Shown piece by piece: positions 8,513-16,911 of a stretch of DNA of 16,911 nt. The stretch is from the IMG/VR virus record IMGVR_UViG_2872164251_000008. The stretch is one strand, 5' to 3'. Both the position numbers and the translations under genes were made by a program. Numbering within the stretch: position 1 is the stretch's first letter; the number at the start of each line of letters is the position of its first letter. The DNA comes from a virus. Its lineage: Duplodnaviria > Heunggongvirae > Uroviricota > Caudoviricetes. The notes beneath the pieces were generated by a model. That model saw only the letters and a program-made list of their open reading frames with translations, searched no databases and was not told where the DNA came from.

Positions 8513-9670
8513 TTAATCGTCGTCTTCCGGCAGTTCCAGAATCTTGATCGCGTTCGAATCCACCACGCCACCGCCTAAATATTTTTGCGTGAAAATTTTG
8601 ATGAATCCTGGTTCTGTCAGGTTGTCCGGTCTGGTGCGAACACCTGTTTCGTGATCAACAATGTAGTAACCGCGTTTGAAGTCACCCAGGGCAATAACGT
8701 TATCAGGCATAAACTCCAGATATTCGACCGGAAGGCCCAGCAACGTATCAGGATCACCCGCCTGTAAACGGTCGCGCCAGATATAATCACCGTTCGCGTT
8801 CTTCACCTTCTGAAGTTTTGCCGCCGTCGTGGAGTTAACCACCCAGACCGCGTTTTTGCGGTATTTTTTACGTAATGCAAATTTCAGGTCGATCAGCGGG
8901 TCCGCAGATGTCCACGCCAGAGATTCGGAAGGTTTAATTACCTGCAACGTACCAAAATCACGCTCTTTGTCGTTCTTCTCTGCACGGGGTACGGATAAAA
9001 AACCTTTTGCTTTTTTGTCACCGTCGCCCACAACCAGATCGCTTTCTTCGGTTTCCGTGAAGGTGTCGCCAATCTCACCCGTCAGCCATGAAAGGATGTC
9101 CACATCGGAAAAATCCACGATTTCCTGTGTGGTGCGCGGGTACGCATAGACCGGATACAGCTTAATGCTCACCTCGTTAATCTGCGGGGTGCTGGTCTGT
9201 TCGCGTGCCTTACCCTCTTCACCGTGGTTAACGGTCGCACCGCCAGCGGAAACAAGCTGCTTAAACTCGTTGCTGCTGATTTTCTTCACGGTACAGATGC
9301 GGCGCATAGTGGATTCATCCGCCAGCATTCGCATGATTTCGGTGTTCAGTTCAGGGATAACGGTATAACCACCATCAGCGGGAACGCCTGTACTTAATGC
9401 GCGGGTTTCACCGGTCAGAATGTAGTTGCGTAGTTCTGCGGGGTCAGTGGTCTGGCTGCTTTTACCTGGCTTGCTGCGCTCTTCGTCTGCAATGGCTTCA
9501 AGGCGGGAAATGTCTTTATCGAGGGATTCAGCTTTAGCGCGTAATTCGTCAAATTTTGCGCCCTCAGCATCGTTAAGACTGCGGTTTTCTTTTTCAGCGT
9601 TCTCCAGCATGTCGCGCATCTGATTTTTAATGGCGGTTTTCTGCTGGCGTAATTCGATTATTCTCTGCAT
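8513..9670 (-). CDS. major capsid protein, HK97 fold, with N-terminal coiled-coil (delta/scaffold-like) region
   Basis: ORF track 8513..9670 (385 aa). Charged coiled-coil N-terminus followed by a capsid-like body. AGGA Shine-Dalgarno 7 nt upstream of ATG. Confidence 0.9.
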   Translation of the reverse strand: MQRIIELRQQKTAIKNQMRDMLENAEKENRSLNDAEGAKFDELRAKAESLDKDISRLEAIADEERSKPGKSSQTTDPAELRNYILTGETRALSTGVPADGGYTVIPELNTEIMRMLADESTMRRICTVKKISSNEFKQLVSAGGATVNHGEEGKAREQTSTPQINEVSIKLYPVYAYPRTTQEIVDFSDVDILSWLTGEIGDTFTETEESDLVVGDGDKKAKGFLSVPRAEKNDKERDFGTLQVIKPSESLAWTSADPLIDLKFALRKKYRKNAVWVVNSTTAAKLQKVKNANGDYIWRDRLQAGDPDTLLGLPVEYLEFMPDNVIALGDFKRGYYIVDHETGVRTRPDNLTEPGFIKIFTQKYLGGGVVDSNAIKILELPEDDD

Positions 9671-9825
9671 AAAAAAGTCCTGGGGTTAAGTAAGGAACTC
9701 CAGGACGCGGCAAACACTCAACCGTTTTTCATAAGGAAATCAGTAATCGCACCGATCGTTTTCCCGCCTGGTAATGAATATTGGCGAGCACATTAACAGG
9801 CGGGAAAGTGGCCCCAGCGTCCTGG
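9671..9825 (-). promoter_or_regulatory. capsid operon 5' leader with terminator/antiterminator-like alternative pairing and a 17-bp-arm inverted repeat
   Basis: On the mRNA, GCGUCCUGG (9708-9700) can pair either with an upstream CCAGGACGC (9825-9817, 9 bp) or with the downstream CCAGGAC (9683-9677, 7 bp). The downstream arm contains the capsid Shine-Dalgarno and is followed by U6 directly before the AUG. A separate inverted repeat TTTCCCGCCTGGTAATG / CATTAACAGGCGGGAAA spans 9760-9807. Confidence 0.4.
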
Positions 9826-9861
9826 CACCACGGGCGAGAATAATCATGATTCAGTTCGGGT

Positions 9862-9930
9862 AAAATATGCCGATCCGCTCAGTGAACAACGTGGAACAAC
9901 CACGAACAAATAATTTACAAAAAATAACAA
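9862..9930 (-). promoter_or_regulatory. candidate capsid-operon promoter (-35 TTGTTC, 16-bp spacer, -10 TATTTT on minus strand) overlapping five phased TTGTTC-type repeats (9884, 9894, 9904, plus degenerate 9915, 9925)
   Basis: Direct reading. The promoter hexamers are weak matches and are not verified. Confidence 0.35.
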
Positions 9931-9950
9931 AAAGCCGGATTGCTCCGGCT
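9920..9950 (-). terminator. rho-independent terminator (AGCCGGA-GCAA-UCCGGCU then UUUUUGUUAUUUUUU)
   Basis: Perfect 7-bp GC-rich stem, 4-nt loop, U-rich tail on the minus strand. Confidence 0.65.
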
Positions 9951-9969: not shown

Positions 9970-10194
9970 TCAGTCTCTGATCCCTTTCAGAAATTCTATC
10001 AATGCATCTGTCTGTTCAGGATTTACTGCCAGCATTTCACCGGATAGCGCGCAACGAACAAAACCATGATGATCCTTTTCAATCAGCGCCCCCGTTTCCA
10101 GAAATGCGCGGTAATCAGTGATATTCATCGTCTCCATGTTGTCAGCATGGTATTTATCACGCTGTTTAAGTATCTCATCAAATTTCATCGGCAT
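9970..10194 (-). CDS. hypothetical protein (74 aa from MPMKFDEILK…), bracketed by two identical terminators
   Basis: ORF track 9970..10272. The internal ATG at 10194 has a GAGGA Shine-Dalgarno at 7 nt, whereas the first ATG abuts the terminator U-tract. Confidence 0.5.
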   Translation of the reverse strand: MPMKFDEILKQRDKYHADNMETMNITDYRAFLETGALIEKDHHGFVRCALSGEMLAVNPEQTDALIEFLKGIRD

Positions 10195-10285
10195 TGCGTT
10201 TTCCTCTGTTGTGTCTGTTTGTTTCAGATAGTAACTATGCCGGACCGTGACGAAAAGCCAGTAGTGCTCCATACCGTTTCAAATG

Positions 10286-10313
10286 ACGCAAAAAAAGCCG
10301 GATTGCTCCGGCT
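10286..10313 (-). terminator. rho-independent terminator, hairpin identical to the one at 9933-9950, followed by UUUUUUU
   Basis: Same 18-nt hairpin AGCCGGAGCAATCCGGCT followed by a T7 run on the minus strand. Confidence 0.65.
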
Positions 10314-10326
10314 TCGTGGTGTGGTT

Positions 10327-10497
10327 CTGATATTCCTACTCTGCTAATTTGCTCAGCCCCATGTCTGCGTAAGTGCGATTTACTGCATTTCTCAGGTCTG
10401 CGTAGTTCTCCGTTGGCGGCTCCGGTGTGCCCTTGCTGCTCTGTTTTACCAGCGGGTCGCCCACCAGCCGCCCGTAAGCTGCAATTTGTGCTGTCAT
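10327..10497 (-). CDS. hypothetical small protein (56 aa), not in the supplied ORF track
   Basis: Open frame found by hand: MTAQIAAYGRLVGDPLVKQSSKGTPEPPTENYADLRNAVNRTYADMGLSKLAE. ATG at 10495-10497 preceded by GAGGTGG. Fills the gap between the 101-aa ORF and the terminator. Confidence 0.35.
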
Positions 10498-10506
10498 ATT
10501 GCCACC

Positions 10507-10812
10507 TCAGTGAAGCGATCCGGCATTGTTCTTTTTCATCTCTTCCATCATTTTTTCAGTGAGCATTACGCACTGAAACCCCATGTTTTTGATGTCTACG
10601 GGTTTCATGCCTTTGTCAGTGGATATCACAGGCAGAATATCCTGATACACATCGCGGTCAGGGTAACTAAGCACACAAAGCGCCCATGATGCCACGGGTG
10701 AGGATCCTTCGTCTGTTTCAACCCACCAGCCTGGTGTAGCTGCGCTTATTTGCAGAATCGTGATCCGTCCGTTGTGCTTGTAAAATTTTTCACCAAATTT
10801 TGGTTCGCTCAT
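10507..10812 (-). CDS. hypothetical protein (101 aa)
   Basis: ORF track. ATGA start/stop overlap with the upstream ORF. GGAGAGG Shine-Dalgarno. Confidence 0.5.
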   Translation of the reverse strand: MSEPKFGEKFYKHNGRITILQISAATPGWWVETDEGSSPVASWALCVLSYPDRDVYQDILPVISTDKGMKPVDIKNMGFQCVMLTEKMMEEMKKNNAGSLH

Positions 10813-11087
10813 GATTCCACCTCTCCGGTTTTAACGTTGATTGTTGTTACCTGTTCCGCTTCGGCAATCTCCCGCTCTGTCAGCGTGGCAAAATTTGCCG
10901 CCGTCGTGGTCATGAATGCGCTTATCAGTTCGGGATGTGCTTTCGCGTATCCTTCCCCCGCGTGGCGGTCTATCGTTCTGATTGCCACCTTTAAAGCGTG
11001 CTCTGTCATGTCTAACGCGCGATATTTCGGTTCTGTTCTGTCTCTGCGTTTTTTGAGTGATTTATTAAATTTCCCTGAAGTGTGCAT
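10809..11087 (-). CDS. hypothetical protein (92 aa)
   Basis: ORF track. GAGGGGG Shine-Dalgarno upstream of ATG at 11087. Confidence 0.5.
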   Translation of the reverse strand: MHTSGKFNKSLKKRRDRTEPKYRALDMTEHALKVAIRTIDRHAGEGYAKAHPELISAFMTTTAANFATLTEREIAEAEQVTTINVKTGEVES

Positions 11088-11129
11088 ATTTATTTTTACC
11101 CCCTCGTTTAAAAAGTTTTGAGTTGTGCC

Positions 11130-11360
11130 TCCCCTTGTCTACCTTAGTGGCCCTCATGCCAGTAATGGCGCTGCTTTCAGCGGGGTAGAGTGCTTTTATC
11201 CACTATCTACCCCGTGTCTACCTCCCTGTCTGATTCAGGTAAAATCAGGTAGAGAGGGTAGATAGTGGGTAGACAGTAAAAAAAGGCTACCTACCTAACT
11301 TAATGCACTGAATTAAATGTATTTTTCTTTACTCAGGTAGATAGGGTAGACAGCAATTAC
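11130..11360. repeat. candidate replication origin: cluster of GGTAGA iterons in both orientations with interspersed AT-rich stretches, immediately 3' of the primase-helicase gene
   Basis: GGTAGA at about 11184, 11248, 11257, 11268, 11336, 11345. Inverted TCTACC at about 11138, 11206, 11217, 11287-11296. AT-rich runs at 11274-11285 and 11300-11330. Confidence 0.55.
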
Positions 11361-11366
11361 AAAAAA

Positions 11367-13115
11367 TTATAAAAACGCGTCGCACTCGTCTGTTGTTATT
11401 GCGTTAGTCTGCGTTACTCCCTTAACTTTCCGCGTAATATATTCATGTCCGTAAACTTTCGCGGCTGGCTTCATAGCCTTGCCAAAGTCATTTACGTTTA
11501 GCGGTTTGCTCCTGCCTGCGTACGCCATAAACGCCAGATAGACGCGGTAAAGGCTGTTTCTGGTCGTGTACTTCACTGAATCGCCACCGCCGCCCATCAT
11601 CAGGCCGCGTGCTTCCTCCAGAAAATTCAGGAACTGGCAAAACTCAATAACCGGATCCGTCTGTTGCTTTATTGCCAGAGCTTCATCACCGTCACGCTGT
11701 TCCAGTAGTAAAGCCCGTGCTTTCTCAGAGTCGGTAAAGTTCGCCAGCAATCGGCGGATAATGACAGGGATTTCAGCCGCAATCTTTTCCGGTAGCTCCC
11801 TGTCTTTTTCGGCCTCACTAACGATATTGTCGAAACGGAAAATCACGCGACGACGTGCCACACCTCCGGCCCGTTCGGTGAATATCATCGGGTTATTGTT
11901 GGTCGCCAGCACCACCGCCCTGATTACAGCCGTGAAACGCTTTTCGTATTTCGGGTTAATTTCCACGGGGTCACCGCCCGTGATTTTCTTGATGCCCGTT
12001 CCTTCGCCTGTATATTTCGGCTGGTCAGCCAGGACGATAAGACGACTCCCGACAACCTGCGGACGTCCACCAGCATCATCAAGCGATGTCATTTCAGCGC
12101 TTACCGTGTTCTGTTTCCCTGCCAGAAGGCTGGCTATGTGTGTGAATGTACTTTTACCGCTCCCGCCGTCTCCGGTGGCCTCAATAAACATCTGCCAGTC
12201 GTACCGGTTCGCCATAATCATGTACAGCGCGGCACATATACGCATCATCTTGCGCTGGTCTTTTCCGGCTGCGTGCTCAAGCCATTTATGAAAGTTTAGC
12301 GCGTTATCGCGGATGTTCTCCCCTGGTGCTGGTGGCGTGTACTCAATGCCGTTGTGCGTGGTGATCCAGTTCTCCGGCGTGTGCGGGGAAAATTCCCCCG
12401 TTTTCAGGTCAAGCGCACCATTGGCGAACGGCAGCAAATCGCCGGACGGCTCGCCCATTGGTTCGGCAATAACTTTTAACGCTTCCACGGCGTTATTGAT
12501 TACGCGCTTGCTGAAAGTGGCCCTGTGCTCTGAATAGATCGCCACCATTTCGCGGCTAAGTTCCATTGTGCTGACCGGACACCATACCCCGCCGCGCCAT
12601 ACGTGAACGATTTCACTTTCCTGATGCACACAAACGCCATCAAAGCGCTCGGCAAGCAGCTGCGCGCGCTCACTGTCTGCCATTTGTGCCAGTTGCGTAT
12701 TTTTCTGCTCCGGCATGGTAAGCCCTGCGGCAATATTTTCACGCTCAGCATTCAGATAGCGCCGCCAGTTTTCACACTTCTGGACGTGCATTCCTTCGGG
12801 GTAAAAATTTGCGTCCTGAATATCTGCCGCCGCCAGCTTCTGACCAATCTTTTTGGTCTCCACCAAATCCAGTTCTCCGGCCTGGTACAGCCTTACGCGT
12901 TTTTTTCCATCCGGAACAATTTTCAGTGCATCAAGTTCGGCAAGCTGATTTGGCCCAAGCCACACAGGCGGCACATTATCGCCGGATGCGGGGCCATCCT
13001 GCTCCTGCCATTGTTTCGCGTGCGACCAGGCATCACTACCCGCAAAGATAATTACCTCTGTGTCTTTGTGTTTTATTCCGCGTGGCTGTTTTTTTACGTT
13101 CGGTGCCAGTTTCAT
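11367..13115 (-). CDS. replication protein: primase/helicase-type P-loop NTPase (P4 alpha / D5-like C-terminal region)
   Basis: ORF track 11367..13115 (582 aa). Walker A motif GDGGSGKST. Overall layout typical of satellite/plasmid primase-helicase proteins. ATGA overlap with upstream ORF. Confidence 0.8.
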   Translation of the reverse strand: MKLAPNVKKQPRGIKHKDTEVIIFAGSDAWSHAKQWQEQDGPASGDNVPPVWLGPNQLAELDALKIVPDGKKRVRLYQAGELDLVETKKIGQKLAAADIQDANFYPEGMHVQKCENWRRYLNAERENIAAGLTMPEQKNTQLAQMADSERAQLLAERFDGVCVHQESEIVHVWRGGVWCPVSTMELSREMVAIYSEHRATFSKRVINNAVEALKVIAEPMGEPSGDLLPFANGALDLKTGEFSPHTPENWITTHNGIEYTPPAPGENIRDNALNFHKWLEHAAGKDQRKMMRICAALYMIMANRYDWQMFIEATGDGGSGKSTFTHIASLLAGKQNTVSAEMTSLDDAGGRPQVVGSRLIVLADQPKYTGEGTGIKKITGGDPVEINPKYEKRFTAVIRAVVLATNNNPMIFTERAGGVARRRVIFRFDNIVSEAEKDRELPEKIAAEIPVIIRRLLANFTDSEKARALLLEQRDGDEALAIKQQTDPVIEFCQFLNFLEEARGLMMGGGGDSVKYTTRNSLYRVYLAFMAYAGRSKPLNVNDFGKAMKPAAKVYGHEYITRKVKGVTQTNAITTDECDAFL

Positions 13116-15088: not shown

Positions 15089-15277
15089 TTAATGAACTGC
15101 CTTGCAGCTATCCTTCCAGGCCAGAACCTCGGATAAAGACCAGCCAACGGAACGACCGCCAAGTTTACGACGTGATGGGAATTGTCCGGCCTTTTCCAGG
15201 CGGTAGCGGCATGAGCGGCTAAGGCCTGTTAGCTTTTCGCATTCTTTTTCACGTATAAACCGATCAGTGCTTAACAC
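15089..15277 (-). CDS. alpA: AlpA/Vis-family phage transcriptional regulator (excisionase-like HTH), GTG start
   Basis: ORF track 15089..15277. Pattern …IREKECEKLTGLSRSCRYRLEKAGQFPSRRKLGGRSVGWSLSEVLAW… is characteristic of AlpA/Vis proteins. AGGGGG Shine-Dalgarno. Confidence 0.85.
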   Translation of the reverse strand: MLSTDRFIREKECEKLTGLSRSCRYRLEKAGQFPSRRKLGGRSVGWSLSEVLAWKDSCKAVH

Positions 15278-15681: not shown

Positions 15682-16911
15682 TTATTTTCTTCTGGCTACT
15701 GGTAGCGTGGTTACGTTTTCATGTGTTCCCGCCAGTATCCCTAACCGCTCCGTCCACATATCCAGCGCATTGCGTTTAGCATCCAGATAACGGGAATGAT
15801 TATAAACTCGCTGCATTCCTGGCATCTGGTGGCCTGTAAGCTGCTCCACGACGTGAGGATCCACGCCTAAATCGTTCAGCATCGTTGTAAAGGTGCGCCG
15901 GATGTCATGTAGTGACCAGTGAGGGTGATTTAGCCTCCTGTGCGCTAATCTGCCGTACTGCGACACGCTTGTTTCCTGTTTCACTTCCCCCAGCAATAAG
16001 CCCGTGTGCCTGTTCTGCTCCACCAGCTGCGTGACGAACGGCAGTATTGCTTCCGGTATGGGCCGGAATATTGCCACCTTCGTTTTGCTGTGTTCTTTCG
16101 GCACGGTCCAGAGCATTTCGGTAAAATCCCACTCGCTGATCTCCGATAACCTCAGTTCTACCGTCCGGCATCCGAACACAATCAGGAGGCGGATTAACGC
16201 GATGTAGTAGGGGGAGAATATTTTTTTGTCCAGTGCCTGCAATAATTCGCCCAGTTCTTTGGTGCTTAAGACACGCTCGCTTATATCCGGTTTTTTCCCA
16301 ACGTCCGCCACACTCATATCATCAAGAACGTTGCTGATTGCATAGCGCCGCCTCCGGCAGAACTTAAGCGCCTGTTTGCACGTCTGTAGCAAGAATCCGG
16401 CAGTAACAGGCGTTCGCTTTGCCACCTGGTCAAAACAGGCCAGCCAGTGCCGTAGCTCGCATTTATCCAGCGGCATAGCACCAATGTGCTGTATTACGTG
16501 ATTATTAAGGCGCTTTTTCAGGGCGGCATAATCCACGCGGTTTTCCTTTGCGTACGACTCAAGCCAGTAGGTGAGCGCATCGCCAACCGTTACCGGCTTT
16601 AACGCTTCCTGTACGGTGTAATTAAGCTCATGACGTGGATTTTTCCCCTCTGCCAGCCATGCGCGACACTGGGCGGCTTTTTCCCTGGCTGATTTCAGGC
16701 TCAGATCAGGATAATTTCCCAGCTTAATGCGTTCCGGTGGTGCCCCCCTTCCCGTTCCGGCCCTGTAAGTGAAATACCAGGTTAAAAGGCCACTGGTTGA
16801 ATGCCTGACGCTCAGGTTTCCACCGTCATTAAGAAAGGCTGTTTTTTGGGCGGGTGTGCCGTTGATTTTCCTCAGCTGTGTATCGCTCAGTTTGTTAAGT
16901 GCTCTGCTCAT
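15682..16911 (-). CDS. int: tyrosine site-specific integrase, P4-type (N-terminal arm-binding domain plus catalytic domain); ATG is the last three bases of the window
   Basis: ORF track 15682..16911 (409 aa). Catalytic pattern …HDIRRTF… and …GHQMPGMQRVYNHSRY. N-terminal region resembles P4-family integrases. Confidence 0.92.
   Translation of the reverse strand: MSRALNKLSDTQLRKINGTPAQKTAFLNDGGNLSVRHSTSGLLTWYFTYRAGTGRGAPPERIKLGNYPDLSLKSAREKAAQCRAWLAEGKNPRHELNYTVQEALKPVTVGDALTYWLESYAKENRVDYAALKKRLNNHVIQHIGAMPLDKCELRHWLACFDQVAKRTPVTAGFLLQTCKQALKFCRRRRYAISNVLDDMSVADVGKKPDISERVLSTKELGELLQALDKKIFSPYYIALIRLLIVFGCRTVELRLSEISEWDFTEMLWTVPKEHSKTKVAIFRPIPEAILPFVTQLVEQNRHTGLLLGEVKQETSVSQYGRLAHRRLNHPHWSLHDIRRTFTTMLNDLGVDPHVVEQLTGHQMPGMQRVYNHSRYLDAKRNALDMWTERLGILAGTHENVTTLPVARRK

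Follow-up and report, generated by a model that had tools for sequence, protein, structure and literature searches.

Conservation of small genes in the presumed cargo positions of an EcCIEDL933-type satellite island

Do small open reading frames (ORFs) found where phage satellites usually carry variable cargo have to be cargo? The question is raised by a 16,911-nt stretch of viral DNA (IMG/VR record IMGVR_UViG_2872164251_000008), analysed at its full length and referred to here as the window. A previous reading made from the letters alone (the sequence-only reading) had placed four small ORFs without recognisable families in such positions, three between the replication origin and the capsid operon and one after the large terminase gene terL; we call them ORF92, ORF101, ORF53, and ORF93 after their lengths in amino acids. 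Our joint reading, to which we assign a probability of about 0.7, is that the window holds a decaying island of the EcCIEDL933 type, a capsid-forming phage-inducible chromosomal island (cf-PICI), in which ORF92 and ORF93 are conserved satellite genes, ORF101 is optional, and ORF53 is a remnant.

An EcCIEDL933-type island and its small genes

Analysis of the ORF listing and comparison with annotated genomes revealed phoQ on the plus strand (window positions 1–1461) and a minus-strand island beyond it, with genes in the order integrase, alpA, a DUF4222 gene, P4-type primase, iteron origin, and small-ORF block, followed by the packaging genes (capsid, prohead protease, portal, head closure, connector, HNH, terS, and terL), IS1, and ORF93 (Table 1). 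The roxA-phoQ site and the gene order are shared with the prototype cf-PICI EcCIEDL933 (CP-933C of Escherichia coli O157:H7 EDL933; bioRxiv 10.1101/2022.09.08.507074). The two integrases were 100% identical at the protein level, and the capsid, protease, portal, connector, HNH, terS, and terL genes showed 97–100% identity; ORF92 corresponds to EDL933_1783 (89% identity) and ORF93 to a homologue with 85% identity, EDL933_1795 by extrapolated locus tags. The islands differ in their replicase, a P4-type primase in the window and a DUF927 protein in EDL933. Furthermore, EDL933 has intact ssb and perC (pchE) genes and lacks ORF101, whereas the window has a deletion that fuses ssb to perC, an inserted ORF101, and a terL interrupted by IS1.

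The window island possesses the integrase, AlpA, and replication module (primase and iteron origin) expected of a cf-PICI, and its packaging genes are all collinear with those of EDL933, though terL is shortened by 21 codons through IS1. Elements of this class have no tail or lysis genes and measure about 10–18 kb; the annotations of the collinear islands L001 and L004 list none of these genes. The island occupies more than 15.4 kb of the window, 768 bp of this being IS1; it starts at about 1470 and continues past 16911, its integrase end lying outside. Judged by gene content and collinearity, the window thus consists of phoQ and a decaying EcCIEDL933-type cf-PICI at roxA-phoQ, the site of the prototype.

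The 92-, 101-, and 93-aa ORFs were located on the minus strand exactly as the sequence-only reading had described them. The third ORF, given there as about 56 aa, is actually 53 aa long, with its TAG stop codon at 10336–10338 and not at an end of 10327. Across many alleles, dN/dS was 0.165 for the core of ORF92, 0.136 for ORF101, and 0.232 for ORF93, with values of 0.132 for ORF74, a further gene of the same block, and 0.056 for the capsid gene. ORF92, ORF101, and ORF93 are therefore genes under purifying selection and not chance ORFs. The decay of the island (IS1 in terL, the ssb-perC deletion, and ORF53 itself being a remnant), together with a simple scan that found no sigma-70-like promoter, might suggest that the ORFs are chance or decaying frames and not functional genes. 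We regard this as very improbable given dN/dS values of 0.14–0.23 over many alleles, hundreds of full-length homologues of ORF92 and ORF93, ribosome-binding sites and coupled starts, and the protein-level fold changes listed for the ORF92 homologue EDL933_1783 in an EDL933 proteomics supplement (PMC11125564).

To compare gene content across related islands, we assembled 75 loci surrounding capsid homologues or other matches and scored every island gene by tblastn; frequencies were counted among EcCIEDL933-type islands with a capsid at least 97% identical and the region in question covered. ORF92 was present in 35 of 36 islands and ORF93 in 26 of 27, compared with ssb in 32/36, perC in 33/36, ORF101 in 18/36, and ORF74 in 17/36. 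The islands behind these frequencies span at least three unrelated replicases (P4-type primase, RepA helicase, and DUF927 protein). The classical PICIs L076 and L077 carry primase, origin, an ORF92-family gene, and ssb in the order of the window, and end with an ORF93-family gene (83–85% identical to that of the window) as the last gene before the right end. Their morphogenesis block differs, comprising a capsid-like gene, a decoration protein gene, and a small-terminase-like gene without portal, protease, or terL. Because ORF92 and ORF93 are near-invariant across replicase types and also occur in classical PICIs with a different packaging module, they belong, on this comparison of loci, to the conserved, satellite-restricted backbone and not to the variable cargo.

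The same restriction was seen in wider searches. Tblastn against 50,697 phage genomes gave no match for ORF92, ORF101, or ORF93, and ORF92 and ORF93 each matched only five of 72,556 plasmid records, of which four carry both and two are chromosome-sized. ORF92 was represented by 166 protein clusters and ORF93 by 1019, and ORF93 DNA was detected in 1344 of 5426 complete E. coli genomes (25%), with up to six copies each. A profile search with ORF93 over 1.84 billion representatives returned 43 proteins, nearly all short or fragments of its own size; three long repetitive proteins appeared at weak, chance-like E-values. One record deposited as a plasmid (NZ_CP148328.1, 10,790 bp) carries an ORF93-like gene at 9972–10250 with 77% identity, and may be an excised circular PICI.

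All four ORFs matched PHROG families of unknown function, with full-length matches for ORF92 (phrog_1231, E = 2.9e-51), ORF101 (phrog_27268, E = 7.6e-70), and ORF93 (phrog_1561, E = 9.9e-54). Pfam and NCBIfam scans returned nothing for these three, and PADLOC-DB 2.0 gave no defence-model match for ORF92, ORF101, ORF53, ORF74, or ORF93 at E-values up to 1. In profile sequence searches against the PDB, ORF92 and ORF93 had no match at E-values up to 10, and the matches of ORF101 were at chance level. The statement that the ORFs have no recognisable families thus held for ORF92, ORF101, and ORF93, whereas ORF53 matches Pfam PerC and, at its N-terminus, SSB. The remote-homology and structure searches that had been proposed as a check gave no known family or fold that assigns a function to ORF92, ORF101, or ORF93.

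Both families are lineage-restricted, being absent from the Citrobacter, Erwinia, and Gilliamella cf-PICIs by tblastn of the fetched loci. Several observations weigh against the joint reading. The Rosenbergiella island L007 keeps ssb and a short ORF93-like gene without ORF92, and in L019 a chimeric ORF101-like gene coupled to ssb stands in place of ORF92; ORF92 is therefore not indispensable to ssb or replication. Even if nearly universal in one lineage, ORF92 or ORF93 could still play an accessory part, for instance in helper interference or anti-defence. Finally, because the simple scan of the sequence gave no sigma-70 promoter, the operon structure described below is a deduction. We also considered ORF92 as a constant companion of ssb and rejected it, since the Rosenbergiella island has ssb without ORF92.

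ORF53 as a remnant and ORF101 as an optional gene

At the position of ORF53, related islands have two genes, ssb (136 aa) and then perC (82–90 aa). An intact copy of the same perC allele is present in E. coli strain 10 (L078), and relative to that strain the window is shorter by 508 bp. Across the deletion, codon 25 of ssb is followed in frame by codon 55 of perC, and the break lies at a CACCG microhomology, which aligns to L078 positions 1559–1563 and 2067–2071. Residues 1–25 of ORF53 accordingly correspond to the SSB N-terminus (by PHROG SSB match) and residues 26–53 to the PerC C-terminus. As aligned, ORF53 is a gene remnant of ssb and perC left by a 508-bp microhomology deletion, and it would be a dead fusion after loss of most of ssb and the first 54 perC codons. 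The junction in one piece was found in three of 5426 complete E. coli genomes; within the locus set, its carriers were L001 (one of those three genomes), the Shigella flexneri island L006, and the IMG/VR contig L031.

The family matches of ORF53 are partial. Its Pfam PerC match (E = 1e-4) covers residues 21–49 only; against PF06069 it scored 22.9 bits (cutoff 22.6), with only positions 50–77 of the 90-position profile aligned, whereas the intact PerC of L078 scored 122 bits over positions 1–77 (E = 1e-35). Likewise, the intact SSB of L078 matched PF00436 at E = 3.3e-16, whereas of the complete OB fold described by that profile (about 104 positions) ORF53 has the first 25 residues only. With 28 of the 82 PerC residues and roughly one quarter of the OB fold left, ORF53 cannot, on its alignment, be a full member of either the SSB or the PerC family. 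The sequence-only reading had named homologues with known core functions as the finding that would speak against it, and for the third ORF such homologues were found, in ssb and a PerC-family regulator. The remnant is also an annotation trap, being named "PerC family transcriptional regulator" by PGAP, the RefSeq automated annotation. Another PGAP label, "trigger factor", is given to a tiny ORF (about 37 aa; L001 10063–10176, L004 8810–8925) that overlaps the 3' end of perC, and is almost certainly an annotation artefact.

ORF101 showed a different pattern. A search of 5.8 billion proteins gave only eight clusters for it, all from E. coli, and it was present in 81 of 5426 complete E. coli genomes. 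All loci with ORF101 have it between ORF92 and ssb, and both of its junctions share a GAGGTGGnAATnATG-like motif (repeat D3), so that it may have been slotted in at a repeated ribosome-binding-site/start motif. From these comparisons, we infer that ORF101 is the only accessory (moron-like) gene of the four and the sole cargo candidate. The chimeric gene of L019 (8268–8618) encodes 116 aa and combines an ORF101-like domain (39% identical) with the ORF92 C-terminal tail (AEQVTTINVKTGE). Because this chimera replaces ORF92, the ORF92/ORF101 slot has some cassette character.

Cargo positions and possible roles

The regions before and after the packaging operon of cf-PICIs are reported to be variable, with immune systems expected there (He et al. 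2025, bioRxiv 10.1101/2025.02.11.637232). Two loci of our set agree with this on the 3' side of terL: L061 encodes an OLD/AriA/GajA-like ATPase-TOPRIM protein (16279–18180; PADLOC, 2.3e-52) and L010 a PD-T7-4-like DUF4145 protein (16112–16813). In the same slot, L008 has a three-gene set including a helix-turn-helix protein (16418–17941). The cargo-slot logic of the sequence-only reading thus holds for the wider cf-PICI family and is mostly wrong for the window island: the hotspots of He et al. are the same two positions, and in the EcCIEDL933 lineage these hold small conserved genes without a PADLOC match.

This evidence bears on whether all four ORFs could be variable accessory cargo with defence, anti-defence, or virulence functions. 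Besides the reported hotspots and the post-terL genes of L061 and L010, such a role would fit the variable presence of ORF101, the replacement of ORF92 by an ORF101-like gene in L019, and the counting of PerC-like genes among the accessory regulators of PICIs (PMC11773190). However, ORF92 and ORF93 occur in nearly all related islands and in classical PICIs, the PADLOC, Pfam, and NCBIfam scans gave no match for ORF92, ORF101, or ORF93, and ORF53 is what remains of ssb and perC; we therefore consider it unlikely. Comparison across related islands upheld the assignment to variable cargo for the optional ORF101 and contradicted it for the near-invariant ORF92 and ORF93 and for ORF53. These results correct the assumption that small ORFs in satellite cargo slots need be cargo, since those of the EcCIEDL933 lineage have proved to be conserved satellite genes.

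ORF92, ORF101, and ORF53 lie, as the sequence-only reading had placed them, between the origin and the capsid operon. All seven matches to GGTAGAYA in the window fell within 11136–11352 (0.46 expected; none of 200 shuffles reached seven), three on one strand and four on the other, and this origin also contains the repeat families D4, D8, D12, and I6. Translational coupling of the three ORFs was confirmed: ORF92 ends and ORF101 begins within a shared ATGA, and 9 nt separate the stop of ORF101, itself spanned by a GAGGTGG Shine-Dalgarno motif, from the ATG of ORF53. The ancestral arrangement is seen in L004, where ORF83, of the ORF92 family, overlaps ssb by 4 nt. The cluster at 10336–11087 would form the distal end of the early operon of the island, running from just after the iteron origin to an intrinsic terminator.

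ORF92, found in nearly every PICI of E. coli and Shigella, is ancestrally coupled in translation to the island ssb. It would be made together with SSB during replication, and its target might be SSB, the origin, or helper functions. Its AlphaFold2 (AF2) model, with a predicted local distance difference test (pLDDT) score of 67, contains helices at residues 20–42, 47–68, and 71–80, forming a helical hairpin and a short helix; its matches to PDB folds were non-specific. We tentatively propose that ORF92 acts with the replication/ssb module, perhaps via its basic N-terminal tail and helical hairpin.

ORF93 was described as the gene after terL, which is correct for the ancestral arrangement, in which it starts 13 nt past the terL stop, whereas here a 768-bp IS1 separates the two. 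Because it is kept as the last gene in classical PICIs without terL, ORF93 is tied to the right end of the island and not to terL. Its AF2 model (pLDDT 70) has three helices and a basic C-terminus. ORF93 might be a small basic regulator or nucleic acid binder expressed at the island right end, although we consider this function doubtful.

The position of ORF93 directly after terL in the ancestral order also invites comparison with "hypothetical gene 1792" of the EcCIEDL933 packaging module, mutation of which severely lowers transfer (Alqurainy et al., bioRxiv 10.1101/2022.09.08.507074). We extended published tag pairs (EDL933_RS08680 = 1783, RS08695 = 1785, and RS08700 = 1786) along the RefSeq gene order. 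This mapping placed 1792 between HNH (1791) and terS (1793), corresponding to a 60-aa ORF of the window (Table 1), and ORF93 at EDL933_1795 by extrapolation; the identification of ORF93 with gene 1792 was therefore rejected. The ORF93 homologue is not among the named packaging-module mutants in the preprint (bioRxiv 10.1101/2022.09.08.507074), and the gene is equally conserved in classical PICIs without terL. A packaging-module role of this kind for ORF93 is thus highly improbable.

A more speculative extension of the joint reading is that ORF92 and ORF93 are satellite-restricted core factors, the former an SSB or origin partner and the latter a right-end nucleic-acid-binding regulator, with ORF101 an anti-phage or anti-defence moron; we hold this combination to be rather unlikely. 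If true, ORF92 or ORF93 could control helper exploitation or island maintenance. The two satellite-restricted families flagged here would be cheap to test in the EcCIEDL933/HK106 system.

ORF74, island decay, and other features

The coordinates of the features in the window are summarized in Table 1.

Table 1. Features of the 16,911-nt window, listed from left to right.
Feature	Position	Strand	Basis
Island right end to attR, no annotated gene (~790 bp)	1470–2257	.	attR directly after phoQ stop
ORF93, conserved last gene of E. coli PICIs (phrog_1561)	2258–2539	minus	26/27 islands; three-helix, basic C-terminus
IS1, 768 bp, in terL 3' end	2627–3394	minus	insertion vs L001, L006, L031; 9-bp target duplication
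terL, IS1-truncated, 533 aa vs 553 aa	3390–4991	minus	last 21 native codons displaced to 2552–2626
60-aa ORF overlapping HNH 3' end, homologue of gene 1792	5454–5636	minus	locus-tag mapping
Capsid gene	8513–9670	minus	ORF listing and annotated relatives
Second intrinsic terminator, 3' of ORF74	9933–9950	minus	terminator and repeat scans
ORF74 (phrog_1957), outside the earlier count but in the same block, adjoining the capsid operon	9970–10194	minus	PHROG and annotation
Intrinsic terminator closing the putative ORF92-ORF101-ORF53 unit	10294–10315	minus	9-bp stem, 5 GC pairs, T run
ORF53, in-frame fusion of ssb codons 1–25 and perC codons 55–82	10336–10497	minus	alignment to L002, L003, L078
Deletion junction, CACCG microhomology	10423–10427	minus	alignment to L078
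ORF101, optional gene between ORF92 and ssb (phrog_27268)	10507–10812	minus	18/36 islands, 81/5426 genomes
ORF92, small alpha-helical protein of E. coli/Shigella PICIs (phrog_1231)	10809–11087	minus	35/36 islands; L076/L077
Replication origin, iteron array between primase gene and ORF92	11088–11366	.	GGTAGAYA matches, repeat families
P4-type primase	11367–13115	minus	ORF listing and annotated relatives
alpA	15089–15277	minus	ORF listing and annotated relatives
Integrase	15682–16911	minus	runs off window

Among the pre-capsid genes, ORF74 is the one retained most widely in distant cf-PICIs: islands of Citrobacter and Gilliamella (41–45% identity) and of Rosenbergiella (31%) have a homologue beside the capsid gene. 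Protein-level values have been reported for its EDL933 homologue, EDL933_1785 (PMC11125564; PMC5120812). As a candidate for core or regulatory functions, ORF74 is more promising than the ORFs of the sequence-only reading. It is flanked by identical 22-nt terminator cores (9929–9950 and 10292–10313, an exact repeat), and in L031 and L078 it is missing exactly between the two terminator repeats; recombination between the flanking terminators could explain part of its 17/36 presence.

Between the second terminator and the capsid start lies a 260-nt leader (9671–9930), which contains an inverted repeat (9760–9776 and 9791–9807; 17 nt, 94% complementary) and a second one (9677–9687 and 9696–9706) close to the ribosome-binding site. 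Such a structure could regulate the capsid operon.

The ORFs at 3064–3339 and 2642–3145 are presumably InsA and InsB of IS1. Given its truncated terL and the loss of ssb and perC, the window island is probably defective in packaging and transfer, and immobile. Upstream of terS, 90 bp (5312–5401) are missing in the otherwise 99.4%-identical Shigella flexneri island L006; this is where a cos site would be expected for such a packaging module.

Genome comparison showed that island-free genomes match the window only to about 1469, and the right end of the island therefore lies just past the phoQ stop. An Rfam scan of the whole window matched no family. Parts of the gene-free right-end region recur elsewhere in other genomes, at sites without an annotated feature, and its stretch at 2076–2255 (180 bp) is represented by only 45 bp in L001. 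The region also contains a strongly hydrophobic 38-aa ORF (MTTQTIEATIAIIVTVGAFPPLVEKVHIWIIITVIKGM) at 1739–1855 on the minus strand, which is identical in 11 related loci and disrupted in O157 islands; it could encode a small membrane peptide, or nothing.
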